Below, one piece after another: positions 13,185 to 21,377 of a stretch of DNA of 64,000 nt. The position numbers and the translations under genes were made by a program. Origin of the DNA: an uncultured Leifsonia sp. GTDB taxonomy: Bacteria > Actinomycetota > Actinomycetes > Actinomycetales > Microbacteriaceae. Position 1 is the first letter of the stretch. Every line of letters begins with the position of its first letter. The notes beneath the pieces were generated by a model, which did no database searches, was not told the DNA's origin, and saw only the letters and a list, made by a program, of their open reading frames with translations. The DNA lies in the NCBI RefSeq assembly GCF_945957465.1, contig NZ_CAMFLC010000016.1, forward strand, positions 5,315 to 69,314, written 5' to 3'.

Positions 13185-14378
13185 GTGAGCGCCCGCCCCG
13201 AACCGACCTCCCCGCCGCGCGCGTCGACCCTGGCACCCCTCTACCTGGCCGGCTTCACGACGGCGTTCGGTGCTCACGGCGTGGCGACGGCTCTCGGTGT
13301 GGAGGCCGGCGACCTCGGTCTCTCGCTGCTGGCCTTCGGGGTCGTGCTGGCGCTGTACGACCTGGCGGAGGTCGTGCTCAAGCCGGTCTTCGGCACCCTG
13401 AGCGACCGGGTCGGTGTGAAGCCGGTGATCGTCAGCGGCCTGATGGTGTTCGCGCTCGCCTCCCTTCTCGCAGCCGTCAGCCCGACGCCGGTGGTCGTCG
13501 CGATCGCGCGGCTCGCCCAGGGCGCCGGGGCGGCGGCGTTCTCGCCGTCGGCGTCGAGCGCGGTCGCGCGGCTCGCCGGCACCGAGCGCCTCGGCCGCTA
13601 CTTCGGTCGCTACGGCGCGTGGAAGAGCATCGGCTACGCCGCCGGTCCCCTGCTCGGCGCGCTGCTCGTGTCCGTCGCCGGGTTGAGCGCGCTCTACCTG
13701 TTCCTGGCCGCCCTCGCGGTGGCGACGACGACCTGGGTCGCGGTCGCCGTCCCCGCCCTCCCCGTGCTGCCGCGGCCCCGGTACACACTCGCGGACCTCG
13801 TCCGCCAGACCACCGAACGCGGCTTCCTCATCCCGACGCTGGCGCTGGCCACGACGACGGCGCTTCTCGGTGTCGCGGTCGGCTACCTCCCGCTGCTGGG
13901 AACGCGTGAAGGCCTCCCACCGCTCGCCGCCGCCGGCGCGGTCGCGGTGCTCGCCGCCGTATCGGCCGTCGCGCAGCCGCTGGCCGGGCGCCTCCGCGAC
14001 TCCGGCCGCCTCCCGGTACGGGTCGGTGTGTCCGCCGCGCTGCTGGTCGGAGCGGCCGCGCTGCTCCTTCTGGTCTGGCCGAGTGTGGTGACCGTGTACG
14101 CATCGGCGCTGCTCGCCGGTCTGACGGTCGGGGTGGCGACACCACTCGCCTACGCGCACCTGGCTGCTGTCACCCCTCCCGAGCGGATGGGCAGGACGAT
14201 GGGCAACGCCGAGCTCGGCCGCGAACTCGGCGACGCGGGAGGCCCGCTGATCGTGGGAGCCATCGGCTCGGCCGCGGGAGTGGCGGCCGGGGTCGGAGTG
14301 CTGGCACTGCTCACCGTGGGGGCCGCTGGGGTGAGCGCGGCGGGCCTGCGGGCGTCGACGTCGACGCGGGGTCGCTGA
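13185..14378 (+). CDS. MFS transporter
   Basis: GTLSDRVGVKP motif A; about 12 TM segments. Confidence 0.9.
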   Translation: MSARPEPTSPPRASTLAPLYLAGFTTAFGAHGVATALGVEAGDLGLSLLAFGVVLALYDLAEVVLKPVFGTLSDRVGVKPVIVSGLMVFALASLLAAVSPTPVVVAIARLAQGAGAAAFSPSASSAVARLAGTERLGRYFGRYGAWKSIGYAAGPLLGALLVSVAGLSALYLFLAALAVATTTWVAVAVPALPVLPRPRYTLADLVRQTTERGFLIPTLALATTTALLGVAVGYLPLLGTREGLPPLAAAGAVAVLAAVSAVAQPLAGRLRDSGRLPVRVGVSAALLVGAAALLLLVWPSVVTVYASALLAGLTVGVATPLAYAHLAAVTPPERMGRTMGNAELGRELGDAGGPLIVGAIGSAAGVAAGVGVLALLTVGAAGVSAAGLRASTSTRGR

Positions 14379-14389
14379 TCGAACCCTGG

Positions 14390-15001
14390 TCACATGCCTT
14401 CTTCGGCAGCCCAGAGCTCCTCGGCCTCGAGGGTCAGGTCGATCGTCTGGCGCAGCAGCTCACCCATCGAGGTGGACCGCAGCAGGGTGTACCTGTCGTA
14501 TTCGCCCAGCGGGGCTATCGCCGCCAGTTGCCACACGGCTGCAACGGGGTCGTCGGAGAGCTCGATGTCCGCATCCGACTCCGACTCCGCGACGCGCGCG
14601 ACAACGCGGCGGACAACAGCTTCGGCCTCGGCACGCAGGGGTGCTAACGCGTCGGACCACTCCAGGTCCGGCAGCATCGAGACCGCGGCCCGGGGATACG
14701 GGTCGTCGTCGGCCCAGTGCTCGACCGTGAACCTCCGGGTCCCCACGCCGATGATGAGCAGGTCGTCCGCGCCGGCGGCGGCGCTGACCAGGCGCGCCAT
14801 CGTCCCGACCGAGGCGCGCTGGTCGCCGCCTCCGGCTTCGGATCCGCGTTCGATGAGGACGACACCGAACTCGAACCCCGGTTCGTCCTCGTCGAGCAAG
14901 CGCCCGACCAGCGTCAGATACCGCGGCTCGAACACCCGCAGCGGGACGGCCACGAAGGGGAAGAGCACTGATCCGAGCGGGAACATCGGTGAGGCGGCCA
15001 T
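14390..15001 (-). CDS. Lon substrate-binding (N-terminal) domain protein
   Basis: PMFPLGSVLFP...PLRVFEPRYL. Confidence 0.88.
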   Translation of the reverse strand: MAASPMFPLGSVLFPFVAVPLRVFEPRYLTLVGRLLDEDEPGFEFGVVLIERGSEAGGGDQRASVGTMARLVSAAAGADDLLIIGVGTRRFTVEHWADDDPYPRAAVSMLPDLEWSDALAPLRAEAEAVVRRVVARVAESESDADIELSDDPVAAVWQLAAIAPLGEYDRYTLLRSTSMGELLRQTIDLTLEAEELWAAEEGM

Positions 15002-15036
15002 ACTCCAGTGAATCACTGCGGGCATAGAGTGAACAG

Positions 15037-15534
15037 GTGCCCCGCCCCCGCCCCGAGATCCCCGGACCGGGACAGGAGTCTGTGTGGGACTACCCGAGGC
15101 CGCCCCGCGTCGAGCGCGTCACCGCGCCCGTCACCATCCGACTGGGCGGGCAGCTGATCGTCGAATCGCGAGACGTCGTCCGGGTGCTCGAGACCAGCCA
15201 TCCACCGGTGTACTACATCCCGATAGCCGACTTCGCGCCCGGCTCGCTGGTCGACGCCGACGGCTCGTCGTTCTGCGAGTTCAAGGGCACCGCACGATAT
15301 CTGGACGTGCTCGGCGGAGGCCAGGTGCGATCCGCCGCCGCGTGGAACTACCCGCACCCGTCGCCCGGGTACGAGGTACTCCGAGACCGCGTCGCCGTCT
15401 ACGCGCAGCAGATGGACGAGTGCACCGTGGACGGCGAGGTCGTCACGCCGCAGCCGGGAGGCTTCTACGGCGGCTGGATCACGAGGAGCGTCGTCGGGCC
15501 CTTCAAGGGGTCGCCGGGGTCATTCGGCTGGTGA
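15037..15534 (+). CDS. DUF427 family protein
   Basis: ESVWDYPRPP, VLETSHPPVYYIP, CEFKG, FYGGWIT. Confidence 0.88.
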   Translation: MPRPRPEIPGPGQESVWDYPRPPRVERVTAPVTIRLGGQLIVESRDVVRVLETSHPPVYYIPIADFAPGSLVDADGSSFCEFKGTARYLDVLGGGQVRSAAAWNYPHPSPGYEVLRDRVAVYAQQMDECTVDGEVVTPQPGGFYGGWITRSVVGPFKGSPGSFGW

Positions 15535-15564
15535 ATGAAAACCGGTAGTAGTTCGACGCGCCGA

Positions 15565-15816
15565 TCAGGACGACGGCGATCGGTGCTCACCGCTCGCGGG
15601 GTCCGACGGCTGATCCTCCGAGCCACGCGGTCCGCGCGAGCCACCTGCTTCGAAGGCGACCGACAACGCAACACCGATCGCGACACCGATCGCGATGCCC
15701 TCACCGATGTTGTGCAAAGAGGCGCCGAGCGCAACCCCGATCGCCAGTCCGATGACGAGGCCAAGCGAAGATGACGTCCACCGTGATCTCGTTCCTGTTC
15801 TGTGCGTTTCGGCCAT
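15565..15816 (-). CDS. Small glycine-zipper membrane protein
   Basis: GLVIGLAIGVALG / GIAIGVAIGVAL repeated TM motif. Confidence 0.7.
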   Translation of the reverse strand: MAETHRTGTRSRWTSSSLGLVIGLAIGVALGASLHNIGEGIAIGVAIGVALSVAFEAGGSRGPRGSEDQPSDPASGEHRSPSS

Positions 15817-15850
15817 CACCCCAACCTACAAGAGCACGAAGGCAATGCGG

Positions 15851-15914
15851 GCGAGCCCGAGGCACCTCGAGCTCGCGCGTACAGGCGAACCGGAACTCGG
15901 TGGAGTTCCGCTTC
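15851..15914. repeat. Two adjacent hairpins; the second contains ychF-tail-like sequence
   Basis: gcgagcccgag-gcac-ctcgagctcgc (15851-15876); cggaactc-ggtg-gagttccg (15891-15910). Confidence 0.65.
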
Positions 15915-15946
15915 GGGCTAGTAGTCAGACGAACGTACGCTGGACG

Positions 15947-16312
15947 CGGCACCCTTCTGACCCTTTTGTAGGGGCGGATGAACGCAGGGTCGGCGAACGA
16001 ATCGAGAGAGCCGGCAGCGGAGAGGTTCCGGTTCAGTGTTGCGCGTGATCCTGGTTCACTCCGGGGCGCCTGGAAAGAACCGGCTCGAGTTCGGGACCCA
16101 GAGCAATGCCGCACCGACCAGCAACAACCCGGAGGAAATCCAGACGGACGGTACCCGAAAGCCTGGCAAGGCAAAGAGAAGGTTCATAACGGCCACGGAT
16201 GAAAGAGTCCACCGTCCCCAACGGAAGCCGCGAGCGACCGGAGAACGGAACGCAATAACAACTCCGACGATGCCTTAATGCACGCGGCAGAGCCAATCGG
16301 AAAATCCCCGAT
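15947..16312 (+). ncRNA. Candidate unannotated structured non-coding RNA (~360 nt)
   Basis: No convincing ORF; A>T skew; helices 16028-34/16077-83, 15988-93/16114-19, 16146-52/16211-17, 16161-72, 16183-87/16199-203; TACGCT -10-like box at 15936-41. No known family recognised. Confidence 0.4.
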
Positions 16313-16315
16313 CAA

Positions 16316-16345
16316 CTACACATTAAGCCTAAACTCCACCACGTT
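16316..16345 (-). repeat. Degenerate duplicate of the ychF 3' end (att-like scar)
   Basis: Encodes NVVEFRLNV* vs ychF DVVEFRFNV*; 22/30 nt identical, several differences synonymous. Confidence 0.75.
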
Positions 16346-16376
16346 GCGCGGCACAGGAATGTGTCGGAGCGCGTCC

Positions 16377-16886
16377 TCAATCCAGGGTCCGAATGTATTC
16401 GACGCGAGGCGCAGCGGGGTCGCCGGATGCGACGCACAGCGCGGAGAAGGCGAACGTGTCGCCGTGGAAGTACTGGACATTGACGTAAACAGCCCGTGGA
16501 TCGCCGTTCGTTTGATCGACCGTGTAACCGTTGGAGGAGGCCGGGCCGACGGAGTCGGCAACGATCGGCCCGGGAGGGAGGGGCGGCTGGTCGCCCCAGA
16601 CATCGGCAGGAACCGCTCGATCGCAGGCGGCGTATATGGTCTTCTCGTCGAACCCGCCTCCACCAGGTGTGGGGACGGCGGTCGAACTCGATGAGGCCGC
16701 CGGGGAGGCCGGAATGGACTGTGCGGCCGCCGACGTCGATGTCGATGTCGATGCCTCCTCCGGTTCGCTCCGAGGGCCAGCGCACGCAGTCAGAACCACA
16801 ACGACGCAGACGGCAAACGCGGCGCCAGCCCCAGCACGGTGTACGCGGCGCACGCTGGCGAGTGACAACACTCCTTCTTCCCCCAT
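16377..16886 (-). CDS. Orphan lipoprotein with Ser/Thr/Pro-rich linker
   Basis: RRVHR, hydrophobic stretch and lipobox LTAC; linker STSTSTSAAA; start codon uncertain. Confidence 0.75.
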   Translation of the reverse strand: MGEEGVLSLASVRRVHRAGAGAAFAVCVVVVLTACAGPRSEPEEASTSTSTSAAAQSIPASPAASSSSTAVPTPGGGGFDEKTIYAACDRAVPADVWGDQPPLPPGPIVADSVGPASSNGYTVDQTNGDPRAVYVNVQYFHGDTFAFSALCVASGDPAAPRVEYIRTLD

Positions 16887-16995
16887 ACTGGTCGGCGCGA
16901 GTGCAGGTTGCACGCTCAACTCGACGCTATCGCCTCCGGCGTCACGCGACGGCCGACACCACTCCCAGCGAGATCGCCCACGAGATTCCGGTCGC

Positions 16996-18069
16996 CTACA
17001 CGTTGAAGCGGAACTCCACCACATCCCCGTCCTGCATCACATACTCCTTCCCTTCCATCCGCGCCTTGCCGCGCGCGCGGGCCTCGGCGACGCTGCCCGC
17101 GTCGACGAGGTCGTCGAAGGAGATGACTTCGGCCTTGATGAAGCCCTTTTCGAAGTCGGTGTGGATGACGCCGGCCGCCTGGGGTGCCTTCCAGCCCTTG
17201 TGGATGGTCCAGGCGCGGGACTCCTTGGGGCCGGCGGTGAGGTAGGTCTGCAGGCCGAGGGTGTCGAAGCCGATGCGGGCGAGCTGGTCGAGACCGCTCT
17301 CGGTCTGGCCGGTGGAGGCCAGCAGTTCAGCGGCGTCGGCCGCGTCGAGGTCGATCAGTTCCGATTCCAGCTTCGCGTCCAGGAAGACCGCCTGGGCGGG
17401 TGCCACCAGCGCCGCGAGTTCCGCGCGGCGGGCGTCGTCGGTGAGCACGTCCTCGTCCACGTTGAACACGTAGATGAACGGCTTCGCGGTCAGCAGCCCG
17501 AGTTCGCGGATCGGCTCCAGATCGATACGGGAGGTCGAGAGCGGCTTGCCGTCGTTCAGGTACGCGATCGCCTCGCGAGCCGTCTCCAGCACCACCGGCT
17601 CCAGCTTGCGGCCCTTGACCTCCTTCTCGTAGCGCTGTTCCGCCTTCTCGAGGGTCTGCAGGTCGGCGAGGATGAGCTCGGTGTTGATGGTCTCCATATC
17701 GCTGGCGGCGTCGACCTTGCCGGCGACGTGCACGACGTCGGGGTCGGAGAACCCGCGGACGACCTGGGCGATCGCGTCGGCCTCCCGGATGTTCGCGAGG
17801 AACTTGTTGCCGAGACCCTCGCCTTCGCTCGCGCCCTTGACGATGCCGGCGATGTCGAGGAAGGACACCGGGGCCGGGAGGATGCGCTCGCTGCCGAAGA
17901 GCTCGGCCAGCTTGTCCAGGCGCGGGTCGGGGAGGTTCACGACGCCGACGTTCGGCTCGATCGTCGCGAACGGATAGTTCGCCGCGAGGGCGTCGTTCTT
18001 GGTCAGCGCGTTGAAGAGGGTCGACTTGCCGACGTTCGGGAGTCCGACGATACCGATAGTGAGAGCCAC
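16996..18069 (-). CDS. ychF: Redox-regulated ribosome-binding ATPase YchF
   Basis: GIVGLPNVGKSTLFNALT, ANYPFATIEPN, DIAGIVKGASEGEGLGNKFL, GDVVEFRFNV. Confidence 0.98.
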   Translation of the reverse strand: MALTIGIVGLPNVGKSTLFNALTKNDALAANYPFATIEPNVGVVNLPDPRLDKLAELFGSERILPAPVSFLDIAGIVKGASEGEGLGNKFLANIREADAIAQVVRGFSDPDVVHVAGKVDAASDMETINTELILADLQTLEKAEQRYEKEVKGRKLEPVVLETAREAIAYLNDGKPLSTSRIDLEPIRELGLLTAKPFIYVFNVDEDVLTDDARRAELAALVAPAQAVFLDAKLESELIDLDAADAAELLASTGQTESGLDQLARIGFDTLGLQTYLTAGPKESRAWTIHKGWKAPQAAGVIHTDFEKGFIKAEVISFDDLVDAGSVAEARARGKARMEGKEYVMQDGDVVEFRFNV

Positions 18070-18164
18070 GGTCGTCCATTCTACGGGCGGCCACGGATGG
18101 GCGGCTTCCGTCTCCCCGCGGCTCGTGGGCGCCGGCGCCGGCCGAGGGGCGAGTGAAGGGCGCC

Positions 18165-18265
18165 CGAGGGGCGCCCAAACGCCCCTAAAGCGCGCGCGAA
18201 GGGGCGTTGAGGCGCCCCTCGGGCGCCCCTCGGGCGCCCCTCGCGCGCCCCTCGGGCGCCCCTCG
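18165..18265. repeat. REP-like 22-bp-stem hairpin followed by 5 tandem 11-mers (GGCGCCCCTCG)
   Basis: Arms 18165-18186/18200-18221; tandem units 18211-18265; relative at 43670-43730. Confidence 0.8.
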
Positions 18266-18280
18266 GCGGCGAAAAGCGGC

Positions 18281-19027
18281 TCAGCCGCCCAGCGTCGTGC
18301 GGTAGCAGCGGGTCACGTACGGGAGCTCGATCGTCTCGGCACCCGCCAGGTCGGGGTGCTCGGCATGGAGGCGGCGCAGCGAGGCGATGACGGCCGCCTG
18401 GGCGTCCGGGTCCTTGGTGATGAAGTAGCTGCGCGAGCGCGCCAGATCGAGGAGGCCGTCGAGCGTGAGCGCTTGCACCCAGCGCACGTCGAAGCGCTCC
18501 AACGGGCCGAACGGAGGTCCGACGACCGGGTCGTCCTCGTCTTCGAACACTGCTTCCGCCGAGTTCATCAGCTCACCGAGTTCGCGCACCCACTCGACGC
18601 TCTCGTCGCGGTCGTTCCAGACCAGGCCGAGCCGGCCGCCCGGCCGCAGCACACGCGCGACCTCGGGCACCGCGACCCGCGGGTCGACCCAGTGCCACGC
18701 CTGGGCGGCGACGACCAGCCCGGCGCTCGCGTCGGGCAGCGGGATGCTCTCGCCGCTCCCCGCGCGGGCATCGGCCTCCGGAACCCGCTCTGCGAGTACG
18801 GCCAGCATCTGCTCGGACGGATCGACGGCCACGACCTCCAGCCCCTGCCCGACGAGCGCACGCGTCAGCTTGCCGGTGCCGGCGCCCAGGTCGACGACCG
18901 GTCCCGCGACGCCCTCGGTGAGCCACGCGACCGCGTCGGCCGGGTAGCCCGGCCGCGACGCCTCGTAGACCTCGGCAGCCCGGTCGAACGACCGCGCGTG
19001 CGCCTCCCGTTCCCGCCTCTCCCGCAT
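18281..19027 (-). CDS. Class I SAM-dependent methyltransferase
   Basis: VDLGAGTGKLT, AQAWHW, LRPGG. Confidence 0.9.
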   Translation of the reverse strand: MRERREREAHARSFDRAAEVYEASRPGYPADAVAWLTEGVAGPVVDLGAGTGKLTRALVGQGLEVVAVDPSEQMLAVLAERVPEADARAGSGESIPLPDASAGLVVAAQAWHWVDPRVAVPEVARVLRPGGRLGLVWNDRDESVEWVRELGELMNSAEAVFEDEDDPVVGPPFGPLERFDVRWVQALTLDGLLDLARSRSYFITKDPDAQAAVIASLRRLHAEHPDLAGAETIELPYVTRCYRTTLGG

Positions 19028-19129
19028 GACCCGACCCTACCCGTCCGGCCGATCGCAGCGCGCCGCCGATTTCGGCCGCGCTCGGCGGTGCGCGCCGGCG
19101 ACGTCGGTGGGGCGTGCAAGCATTCAGGC

Positions 19130-19711
19130 GTGCCACTGGATTTCACCGCCATCGACTTCGAGACCGCGAACTCCTCAGCGGCGTCCGCGTGCTCGGTCGG
19201 ACTGGTGAAGGTGCGCGACGGCCGCGTCGTAGACCGGGCGAGCTGGTTCATCCGGCCGCCGCTGGGACACGATCTGTTCCAGGAGTGGAACGTCCGCATC
19301 CACGGGATCCGGCCGGAGGACGTCGCCGGCGCACCGGGCTGGGTGGACCAGCTCGCCGACCTGGTGGAGTTCGCCGAAGACGACCACCTCGTCGCGCACA
19401 ACGCCGGCTTCGACATGGGCGTGATCCGCGCGGCGTGCGCCGCCACGTTCGTCTCGTGCCCGGAGTACCGCTACCTGTGCAGCCTCCAGGTCGCCCGCCG
19501 CACCTACCACCTGGAGTCCTACCGCCTGCCCGTCGCCGCGATGGCTGCGGGGTTCGACGACTTCCACCACCATGACGCCCTGGCCGACGCCGAGGCGTGC
19601 GCGGCGATCGTGGTGCACGCCGCCCGGCGGCACGAGGCCGCGACGATCGACGACCTCGCGGCGCTGACCGGCGCACGCATAGGGCGCATCGGGTATCCCG
19701 CGGCCGCCTAG
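19130..19711 (+). CDS. DEDDh 3'-5' exonuclease (Pol III epsilon-like)
   Basis: AIDFETAN, AHNAGFD, HHDALADA. Confidence 0.92.
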   Translation: MPLDFTAIDFETANSSAASACSVGLVKVRDGRVVDRASWFIRPPLGHDLFQEWNVRIHGIRPEDVAGAPGWVDQLADLVEFAEDDHLVAHNAGFDMGVIRAACAATFVSCPEYRYLCSLQVARRTYHLESYRLPVAAMAAGFDDFHHHDALADAEACAAIVVHAARRHEAATIDDLAALTGARIGRIGYPAAA

Positions 19712-19895
19712 CAGCTGACTCGGCCCGGCCGAGCCGGATCGAGTGGGCCGAGCGGAACCGTGGGCCGCGCCCACGCGACCCCGTCGACTCGACGCGTCGC
19801 TGATCGGGTATTTACCCCTCAGGAATACAAGCGTTGCAACTTCGCGCATCTGGTCCTAATGTCCAGACATATCGACAAGCCGCGAAGGAGCGCTG

Positions 19896-21377
19896 ATGAC
19901 CGCAACCCCCGACCCGCAGACCACCGACACGCAGGCCACCACCAGGCAGACCACCGACCCGCAGACCGATCCACCCCCGGCCGACCTCGCTCAGGATTCG
20001 CGCGCCGACGACCCCCGCGCACGGCGCTTCCTGCGGCGGATCGCCGTGCTGGCCACATTCGGCGGCCTCCTGTTCGGTTACGACACGGGCGTCATCAGCG
20101 GGGCGCTGCCGTTCATGCAGTTCGATCAACGGCCGCTGACCCCGCTCGAGGAGGGCACCGTCGTCTCCTCGCTGCTCGTCGGCGCCGCGCTCGGCTCGTT
20201 CGCCGGCGGCCGCATCGCCGACCGCCGCGGACGGCGCCGGCTCATCGCCGGCCTCGCGGTGATCTTCTTCGCCGCCGCCCTCGCCTGCGCCTTCGCGCCC
20301 GGGATCGGCATCATGATCGCAGCCCGGTTCACCCTCGGGCTCGCCGTCGGCGGCGCCTCCGTCGTGGTGCCGATGTACCTCGCCGAGCTCTCCCCCGCGG
20401 CACGCCGAGGGCGCATCGTGACGCAGAACGAGCTGATGATCGTCTCCGGTCAGCTGGCGGCCTTCGTCGTCAACGCCGTGCTCGCCGCGGCGATCCCCGA
20501 TCACGCGGCGGTGTGGAGGTGGATGCTGGTCGTCGCCTCGCTGCCGGCCGTCGTGCTGTTCTTCGGGATGCTGGTCGTGCCGGAGAGCCCGCGCTGGCTC
20601 ATCCTGCACGGCCGCTTCGCCGAGGGTGTCGCCGTGCTGCGCCGCATCCGCTCCGCGGAGCAGGCCGAACGCGAGGCCGCGGAGATCCACCGGCACGACG
20701 AACGCGCCGCGCGCACTCCGCTGCTGCGCGAGCTCGCGGTGCCGTGGGTCCGCCGCGTCTTCCTGATCGGCCTCGGGATCGCGATGGTGCAGCAGCTGAC
20801 CGGGGTCAACTCGATCATGTACTACGGCGTCCAGATCCTGCAGCGTTCCGGCTTCGATCAGCAGGGCGCCCTCGTCGGCCAGATCGCCAACGGCGTGATC
20901 TCGGTGCTGGCGACGTTCGTGGGAATCGCACTGCTCGGTCGGGTCGGGCGTCGCCCGCTCCTGATCGCCGGGCTCATCGGCACGACGACGTCGCTGCTGC
21001 TGGTCGGTGGAGCCTCGGCGCTGCTCGCCGGGTCTCCCGCGCTGCCCTTCGTCGTGCTGTCGCTCACGGTGACCTTCCTCGCCTTCCAGCAGGGCGCGGT
21101 CTCCCCGGTCACGTGGCTGATGCTGGCCGAGATCCTCCCGGCGCGGATCCGCGGCGCCGCCTTCGGCCTGGCCGCGCTCGTCCTCTGGCTGACGAACTTC
21201 GCGGTCGGCTTCCTCTTTCCCCAGCTGGTGGACGGCCTGGGCATCTCCCCGACGTTCTTCCTCTTCGCCGCCGTCGGGGTGTGTGCGGTGATCTTCGTCG
21301 CCCGCTTCCTGCCGGAGACGCGCGGACGCAGTCTGGAGGCGCTGGAGGCTGAGCTGAAGGCGCGGTTCACGCGCTGA
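19896..21377 (+). CDS. Sugar porter family MFS transporter (IolT-like)
   Basis: FGGLLFGYDTG, PESPRWL, QQLTGVNSIMYY, LPETRG. Confidence 0.92.
   Translation: MTATPDPQTTDTQATTRQTTDPQTDPPPADLAQDSRADDPRARRFLRRIAVLATFGGLLFGYDTGVISGALPFMQFDQRPLTPLEEGTVVSSLLVGAALGSFAGGRIADRRGRRRLIAGLAVIFFAAALACAFAPGIGIMIAARFTLGLAVGGASVVVPMYLAELSPAARRGRIVTQNELMIVSGQLAAFVVNAVLAAAIPDHAAVWRWMLVVASLPAVVLFFGMLVVPESPRWLILHGRFAEGVAVLRRIRSAEQAEREAAEIHRHDERAARTPLLRELAVPWVRRVFLIGLGIAMVQQLTGVNSIMYYGVQILQRSGFDQQGALVGQIANGVISVLATFVGIALLGRVGRRPLLIAGLIGTTTSLLLVGGASALLAGSPALPFVVLSLTVTFLAFQQGAVSPVTWLMLAEILPARIRGAAFGLAALVLWLTNFAVGFLFPQLVDGLGISPTFFLFAAVGVCAVIFVARFLPETRGRSLEALEAELKARFTR

Follow-up and report, generated by a model that had tools for sequence, protein, structure and literature searches.

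Why does the DNA behind the gene ychF hold several copies of the last codons of that gene? The question is raised by a window of 64,000 nucleotides (the whole stretch of DNA that was analysed; contig NZ_CAMFLC010000016.1, positions 5,315 to 69,314) from an uncultured Leifsonia sp. with a genome of 4.06 Mb and a G+C content of 69.9%. In this window ychF is separated from the neighbouring DUF427 gene by a foreign insert of 1,461 bp (15535-16995), in which an initial annotation recognized four tail-like stretches, here called (a) to (d), as att-like scars of repeated integration and decay with no integrase left; more speculatively, it considered target-matching sequence beside a guide or bridge RNA. 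Our comparison with related genomes makes integration very probably the correct answer. In Actinomycetes the last 27 nt of ychF appear to serve as the bacterial attachment site (attB) for a family of integrative elements that depend on large serine recombinases (LSRs) for their movement, and the insert would be a decayed remnant of their activity.

Copies of the ychF tail in the insert

All letters and positions first given for the copies proved correct when re-checked (Table 1). Copy (a), on the minus strand like ychF itself, reads AAC GTG GTG GAG TTT AGG CTT AAT GTG TAG and agrees with the functional tail in 22 of 30 nucleotides; without gaps the similarity covers 35 nt at 74% (16308-16342 against 16988-17022). 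For an empirical null, the 30-nt tail was compared with all 8.1 million positions of the genome, both strands included. Only two non-self 30-mers reach at least 22/30, (a) being one of them, and the chance of its landing where it does, 680 nt downstream of the tail on the same strand, is about 4e-4. The AT-shifted character ascribed to (a) was likewise confirmed, its best matches among other tails being the AT-shifted tails of genomes G058, G054 and G046.

Copy (b) (15899-15914) is a perfect inverted 16-mer, as had been claimed, and the genome contains exactly two perfect copies of it, one in the ychF tail and the other being (b). For (c) (15887-15898) the reported 11/12 match stands; it is not an independent copy, because it forms the other hairpin arm of (b), with 15886-15898 pairing with 15903-15915 (12/13 pairs) around the loop GGTG. 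A tail weight matrix built on 67 tail copies from other genomes assigns (b) a p of 1.1e-5. Under the same matrix the weaker inverted look-alike (d) (16022-16039), lying on the plus strand like (b), obtains p = 2.1e-5 per position with about 0.06 such hits expected in the insert, so that it keeps the orientation first described and counts as a marginal tail copy. The chance-match check that had been called for shows the copies to be non-random, through the genome-wide null for (a) and the uniqueness of the 16-mer for (b).

The region behind ychF in the genus

The gene ychF with 10 kb of downstream DNA was fetched from 23 congeners and then from 11 more, and a genus-wide pattern search covered 55 genomes. 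Across these 55 genomes the region downstream of ychF is hypervariable, not invariant. Two congeners have an empty site, with the DUF427 stop 28 nt (G009) and 12 nt (G012) from the ychF stop; in others the gap measures from 0.9 to more than 10 kb and is filled with unrelated DNA, including Abi-like genes, glycosyltransferases, lipoproteins and transposases. The gene itself is 90-99% identical across the genus, and the nucleotides of its tail are near-invariant between families of the order. The encoded end is mostly FRFNV*, with VVEFRHS* in G011, G021 and G022, FRFSN* in G023 and an extended end in G024, and the divergence of these variants always begins immediately 3′ of GGAGTTCCG.

Most fetched loci contain additional direct tail copies behind ychF, up to three per genome, and arrays of 2-4 copies are found in G007, G015, G002, G055, G046, G054 and L106. 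Aligned on the tail, these displaced copies (type A sites) share an upstream arm of about 25-38 nt that is not derived from ychF, with a consensus close to (C)AATGCCTATCCGTGACGTAAC, about ATGCCTATCCGTGACGTAAC. Copies with AT-shifted tails (TTT AAT, AGA/AGG) also have about 17 nt in common 3′ of the stop, CTGAYCWGGGGTTTT(CC). Outside the arm and the post-stop motif the displaced copies show no similarity, and empty sites possess neither of the two. The site of a tail-restoring cassette is composed of the arm, the tail and CTGACCTGGGGTTTTCC. A degenerate pattern of arm plus tail matches 21 of the 55 genus genomes, with zero matches for the reversed-pattern control, and all matches lie within a few kb of ychF save one with two mismatches (G050). 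The proposal that elements integrated at the ychF 3′ end more than once and then decayed is thus borne out by empty sites, by flanked copies in at least 21 of 55 congeners and by the intact elements described below.

Outside the genus, a different conserved post-stop motif, CGTTATTGACG-N5-CGTTAT, follows the stop in G275, G315, G078, G312, L106 and L107; the element-derived distal half-site is therefore lineage-specific. The possibility that CTGAYCWGGGGTTTT is a native flank of ychF was rejected, as empty sites are devoid of the motif and it travels with AT-shifted tails.

Several further observations concern the units of the arrays. Genomes G002 (L057, 3323-4446) and G055 (L093, 2679-3802) have a cassette in common, 89.8% identical over 1,124 nt and containing a 399-aa open reading frame (ORF) of unknown function. 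It is bounded by tail copies in both genomes and occupies a later array position in G002 and the first in G055; the units are therefore modular. In G007 (L045, 1184-1453) an 80-aa pseudo-copy of the ychF 3′ end is present with 55% identity, and in G037 (L038, about 3557), which belongs to another family, a second copy of the 3′ end together with upstream coding sequence lies 1 kb downstream. Weak tail-like copies also occur 3′ of the DUF427-LON_substr_bdg gene pair in G009 (L051, 2339-2365) and G018 (L041, 3226-3252). The conserved pair, used here to define the "empty" site, could be a cassette that was captured long ago.

Large serine recombinase elements in the ychF tail

A search for resolvase domains located a pair of serine recombinase genes downstream of ychF in G011 and, in G021, a disrupted gene of this kind. 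The G011 element is 11.8 kb long and inserted in the ychF tail. Its left junction (attL) consists of ychF sequence ending in GTGGTGGAGTTCC followed by GTCACAGTTAGGCATT, which yields the VVEFRHS* tail, and its right junction (attR) of AATGCCTAACTCTGACGTGAC followed by GTGGTGGAGTTCCGTTTCAACGTCTAG. Just past attR begins a gene for a 429-aa protein in which Pfam recognizes Resolvase and Recombinase domains, while the cargo comprises Prim-Pol, an AAA_25 helicase and a small resolvase.

The G011 LSR protein was scanned against one genome per species, which gave 12 loci. The closest homologues belong to Microbacterium koreense (83%), M. hominis (81%), an uncultured Microbacterium (77%), an Actinomycetes metagenome-assembled genome (MAG; 75%) and a Propionibacteriaceae MAG (50%), and in each of these five loci (L104-L108) no more than about 60 nt separate the recombinase start from a ychF tail. 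For two of them ychF itself lies about 9 kb off, at the opposite element end, where it encodes a VVEFRH(S/G) tail and is accompanied by a matching inverted arm; the LSR gene terminates an element of 9-12 kb sitting in the ychF tail. The arm stands 20-60 nt from the start of the LSR gene in the G011, Microbacterium and Propionibacteriaceae genomes, and in the last of these it reads ATGCCTATCCGTGTCGGAAT, identical to the consensus arm of the scars in the genus of the window. In M. hominis NBRC 15708 (L105, 8907-11296) the LSR gene starts about 40 nt past the ychF stop, at the ychF-proximal end. As it is distal in G011, L106 and L107, the gene can occupy either element end, and the internal orientation relative to the near-palindromic attP therefore differs between the L105 element and the other three.

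The element site attP was reconstructed by joining the element halves of attL and attR (G011, L106, L107). The product, AATGCCTAACTCTGACGTGACGTGGTGGAGTTCCGTCACAGTTAGGCATT, is a dyad of about 50 bp in which 16-nt inverted outer arms (15/16) surround an 18-nt centre, whose midpoint coincides with the GT in the second GTG codon; the identity with attB spans 14 nt. Judging from the symmetry of this attP and of the palindrome formed by (b) and (c), the crossover dinucleotide in the window is probably the GT at 17018-17019.

Intact elements at this site, for which a search had been recommended, therefore exist in G011, in Microbacterium and in a Propionibacteriaceae MAG, and their enzyme is an LSR whose gene adjoins attR; a tyrosine or IS110-type enzyme, also envisaged, was not borne out. 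Such genes are rare among the arrays. None of the genus arrays besides G011 contains an LSR, and when all fetched array loci were translated in six frames and searched with a hidden Markov model built from 13 LSRs, no hidden or decayed LSR was detected except at G011 and the seed loci.

Copy (a) fits this element family through its flanks. Its post-stop sequence TTGATCGGGGATTTTCC scores 17.1 bits against a matrix made from 22 sites in other genomes, (a) excluded, a value equalled by only 8 of the 8.1 million genome positions (p about 1e-6). The flanks of (a) can be assigned to a recurrent site family, as can the palindrome. Copy (a) is accordingly annotated as a putative attR-type scar of the LSR element family, and its AT-shifted tail and post-stop motif mark it as a junction with an older cassette.

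Could homologous recombination in the core genes on either side have been the sole means by which the variable region spread, with the tail copies as passive by-products, for instance of local duplications? Those core genes are 88-99% identical between species, which makes allelic replacement of the whole region easy, and the 80-aa-long pseudo-copies of the ychF 3′ end in G007 and in the genome from another family would suit such an origin. As a full explanation it is nevertheless very improbable. It does not tell why arms foreign to ychF are conserved at constant distances on either side of the copies, why the breakpoints fall at a single tail position (variants RHS* and FSN*) or why LSR genes abut the arm. 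Homologous recombination probably contributes to the spread without creating the scars.

Islands of the tRNA-gene type, carrying a long copy of the target 3′ end and a tyrosine integrase that has since been lost, are a further explanation, which we regard as very improbable. Tail-restoring direct repeats of at least 27 nt with AT-shifted synonymous codons are the classic signature of tyrosine-integrase islands, and the genus cassettes, restoring FRFNV*, conform to it. Against this, no PF00589 integrase gene was found within tens of kb downstream of ychF in 23 congeners, five intact or partial elements have their LSR genes abutting the very arm that accompanies the displaced copies, and the reconstructed attP sites are dyads of about 50 bp, as is typical of LSRs. 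For type A sites, the adjacency of the LSR refutes a tyrosine-integrase origin.

The palindromic site

Copies (b) and (c) together make up the inner 28 nt of a second recurrent site, here called type B (AGGTTGNTCNGTRC-CGGAACTCGGTGGAGTTCCG). The pattern CGGAACTC-NNNN-GAGTTCCG was searched in 301 genomes of the order alongside a reversed-pattern control, and 11 genomes match against 1 for the control. The 20-mer with the identical loop, CGGAACTC-GGTG-GAGTTCCG, is shared by 8 other genomes, which represent 6 families of the order. In the window 27 of the 28 positions equal the consensus GTACCGGAACTCGGTGGAGTTCCGCTTC, and the dyad centre falls on the same GT, at 15900-15901. Elsewhere the palindrome is preceded by a second conserved arm, cAGAGGTTGnTCnGTRC, and runs on into the remaining ychF tail (...CCGCTTCAACGTCTAG); the palindrome of the window has the opposite orientation to ychF, shows no conservation in the outer arm and is followed by the rest of the tail in decayed form, GGGCTAGTAG. 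Six type B loci were fetched at 20 kb, and in the four with an intact ychF the site lies 1.9-8 kb behind the gene in direct orientation, within arrays that also contain type A sites. Array position and symmetry suggest that type B sites are LSR sites too.

In three families (L129, L130 and L132) an ORF for a HigA-like antitoxin (..IEPIHPGEVLME..WINLQSHYELDRAED..) is located about 500-900 nt from type B sites, and toxin-antitoxin cargo seems to travel with them.

A more mundane view of the hairpin takes it for a transcription terminator, or for a chance palindrome that resembles the ychF tail. It is intergenic and GC-rich with 12 of 13 bp paired, and actinobacterial terminators are frequently devoid of a U tract. 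We consider this view highly improbable, given that no T run is present on either strand and a terminator scan made no call, that the 16-mer is unique in the genome besides ychF, and that in the 8 genomes of other families the 20-mer, identical down to its loop, runs on into ychF tail sequence.

Layout of the insert

The features of the locus are collected in Table 1. A second assembly (L126; ENA assembly ERZ12289966, NODE_8) contains 7,074 bp identical to window positions 13996-21069, and no gene was called there within the 1.46-kb insert, so that both the lipoprotein gene and the 84-aa ORF are missing from its annotation. Both small genes have a G+C content at third codon positions (GC3) of 0.71, against 0.89-0.93 in ychF and the DUF427 gene, and across 15800-16400 the overall G+C drops from about 0.70 to 0.56-0.63. 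A search for tRNA and tmRNA genes around the site found none.

Table 1. Features of ychF, the insert behind it and the far boundary gene (positions in the window).
Feature	Position	Strand	Basis and remarks
ychF, target gene, 357 aa	16996-18069	-	ORF; Pfam MMR_HSR1 and YchF-GTPase_C on the identical gene in L126
Functional ychF tail, presumed attachment site in use	16996-17025	-	GAT GTG GTG GAG TTC CGC TTC AAC GTG TAG
Shared core GTGGTGGAGTTCCG within the functional tail	17009-17022		Common to the tail and the reconstructed attP
Cassette 1, with one lipoprotein gene	16346-16995	-	Between the functional tail and copy (a)
Lipoprotein-like gene, lipobox LTAC	about 16377-16886	-	ORF; GC3 0.71
Copy (a), putative attR-type scar in three pieces	16299-16366	-	Arm 16343-16366; tail copy NVVEFRLNV* 16316-16345; post-stop TTGATCGGGGATTTTCC 16299-16315
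AT-richer orphan filler, GC about 0.6	15924-16298	unassigned	"Candidate RNA" of the initial annotation
(d), marginal decayed tail-like stretch	16017-16043	+	Tail weight matrix; orientation inverted like (b)
(c) and (b), palindromic core of type B	15886-15923	+	GAACCGGAACTC-GGTG-GAGTTCCGCTTC, then decayed tail remainder GGGCTAGTAG
Orphan 84-aa ORF, Gly/Ala/Ile-rich, membrane-like	15565-15819	-	ORF; GC3 0.71
DUF427 gene, convergent with ychF, far boundary of the insert	15037-15534	+	Pfam PF04248

The lipoprotein gene is horizontally acquired cargo. A Pfam search assigned it to no family, and G007 and G023 have homologues of 59-62% identity at other places in this variable region. The 84-aa ORF is possible cargo of uncertain gene status; no homologue was found in any fetched locus or elsewhere in the genome, and its sole Pfam match is below threshold. 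The AT-richer filler, which is probably decayed cargo, matched nothing in 54 congeners, plasmids or phages, and when the 837-bp stretch 15540-16376 was compared with the same set, only the tail copy matched. On the other side of the locus, just 5′ of the ychF start (18100-18270), the G+C content rises to 0.78-0.81 over repeated GGGCGCCCCTCG-like units (..gaggcgcccctcgggcgcccctcgggcgcccctcgcgcgcccctcgggcgcccctcgg..).

The suggestion that a structured RNA (15947-16312) offers target-matching loops to an IS110-type recombinase is effectively refuted and has next to no probability: although the tail-like (d) lies inside the AT-rich stretch and the plus-strand fold of 15880-16316 is slightly better than shuffled sequences (z = -1.86, 4 of 100 shuffles as good), the minus-strand fold is worse than shuffles (z = +1.04), a search for IS110 transposases (PF01548, DEDD) found zero in the genome and none adjoining ychF in congeners, Rfam at a permissive threshold returned only two chance-level matches to eukaryotic families over 14000-19000, and the stretch is unconserved in the set just named.

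Proposed history of the locus

We hypothesize that an LSR element recombines at the GT in the second GTG codon of ...GTG GTG GAG TTC C..., which would leave attL at the end of ychF and attR, made of the element arm and the displaced ychF tail, at the far end. The recombinase and most of the cargo would later be deleted, and small integrase-less cassettes, each ending in a tail copy, would accumulate behind ychF. Cassettes whose distal half copies the tail would rebuild a usable attB, so that newcomers could insert beside ychF and push older units outward.

Applied to the window, this scheme would require three steps. An older, AT-richer cassette may have arrived first, its tail-restoring half being preserved as the right half of (a). 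The lipoprotein cassette would have come later and contributed its arm as the left half of (a). Deletion and inversion would then have affected the distal part bearing (b), (c) and perhaps (d). A native displaced tail, expected beside the DUF427 gene, was not found in the insert with the tail weight matrix. The means by which tail-restoring cassettes move, like the event that inverted the palindrome, is likewise inferred.

Several observations weigh against LSR-driven integration as the source of the insert. No recombinase is present in the window, in agreement with the initial description of scars without an integrase, and a close homologue of the G011 LSR is absent from its genome, so that only the homology of the site flanks connects the insert with an LSR. 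Part of that homology is modest, as the arm of (a), although placed at the exact required offset, is a weak match to its family (5.8 bits, p = 7e-4). The intact LSR elements all alter the ychF tail to VVEFRH(S/G), whereas the genus cassettes restore FRFNV; the rule that integrative elements restore the gene tail, invoked in the initial annotation, describes the integrase-less cassettes but not the intact elements. Among the fetched loci no tail-restoring cassette with an LSR of its own was found, and no recombinase adjoins the type B sites in the six 20-kb loci. Finally, simple integration does not account for the inverted orientation of (b) and (c).

Relation to known systems

A study of pipolins published in 2024 (Mateo-Caceres et al., bioRxiv 10.1101/2024.05.22.595293; PMC11551731) includes passages in which ychF is identified, on the basis of genetic context, as a newly recognized target of those actinomycetotal pipolins that encode LSRs. 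In those passages the target gene, the phylum and the recombinase class are the same as here, and some of the ychF-site elements also carry a resolvase-like small serine recombinase, like the G011 element. Unlike pipolins, the G011 element combines Prim-Pol with AAA_25 and has no PolB by Pfam; its largest ORF after the LSR is 368 aa, and none is piPolB-sized. Unlike the published elements, the window holds scars alone, and the passages concerned give neither att sequences nor integrase-less arrays. The use of ychF as an LSR target in Actinomycetota is thus already published, and what the window contains is a minor, degraded case of an established phenomenon.

The closest parallel in organization is the staphylococcal cassette chromosome (SCC, SCCmec), which the LSRs CcrAB and CcrC insert at the 3′ end of rlmH (orfX) in staphylococci, and in which composite arrays and recombinase-less pseudo-elements are frequent. 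Both systems use the last codons of a housekeeping gene, with direct repeats of the tail bounding the units and with tandem accretion; in both, recombinase-less units are common and the restored tail keeps the site reusable. They differ in host phylum and target gene, and trans-mobilisation of cassettes, documented for SCC, is only inferred at ychF. Tandem units, tail repeats and a restored frame, the hallmarks of SCC, are found in the ychF arrays; the window contains one direct unit and inverted remnants.

In phage serine integrases of the Bxb1, phiC31 and A118 type, the integrase gene adjoins attP. They share with the ychF LSRs an attP dyad of about 50 bp, a short identity with attB (14 nt here) and a non-palindromic central dinucleotide, which at ychF is the presumed GT. 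Unlike phage sites, the ychF elements are non-phage islands of 9-12 kb with replication and defence-like cargo and many accumulated scars. The arrays also resemble those of integrons, both consisting of short, mostly promoter-less cassettes that each have a related terminal recombination site. Unlike integrons, they have no adjacent tyrosine integrase IntI, their sites are gene-tail copies with double-stranded dyad arms instead of attC hairpins, and they are anchored in coding sequence.

Implications

For annotation, the 1.46 kb behind ychF are to be described as a decayed insertion hotspot and as neither an RNA gene nor a guide-RNA system. To the published but sparsely described use of ychF as a target our analysis adds the anatomy of the sites, namely the reconstructed attP, the site types A and B, the likely crossover GT and the lineage-specific post-stop motifs. 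Natural pairs of LSR and att sites with a highly conserved bacterial landing site are relevant to the choice of genome-engineering tools. The majority of occupied sites are integrase-less cassette arrays, which is of relevance to the discovery of defence islands.

We further speculate, tentatively and while considering it rather unlikely, that the integrase-less cassettes constitute an SCC- or integron-like gene-capture system across several actinomycete families, moved in trans by rare LSR elements. If so, short cassettes, often with defence or toxin-antitoxin genes, would each end in a site of about 65 nt (arm, tail and lineage-specific post-stop motif) and would be inserted, excised, shuffled and occasionally inverted in trans by the LSR elements. 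Every insertion would rebuild attB, so that the array would grow from the ychF end, and the inverted palindrome of the window would be the footprint of an LSR-driven inversion.

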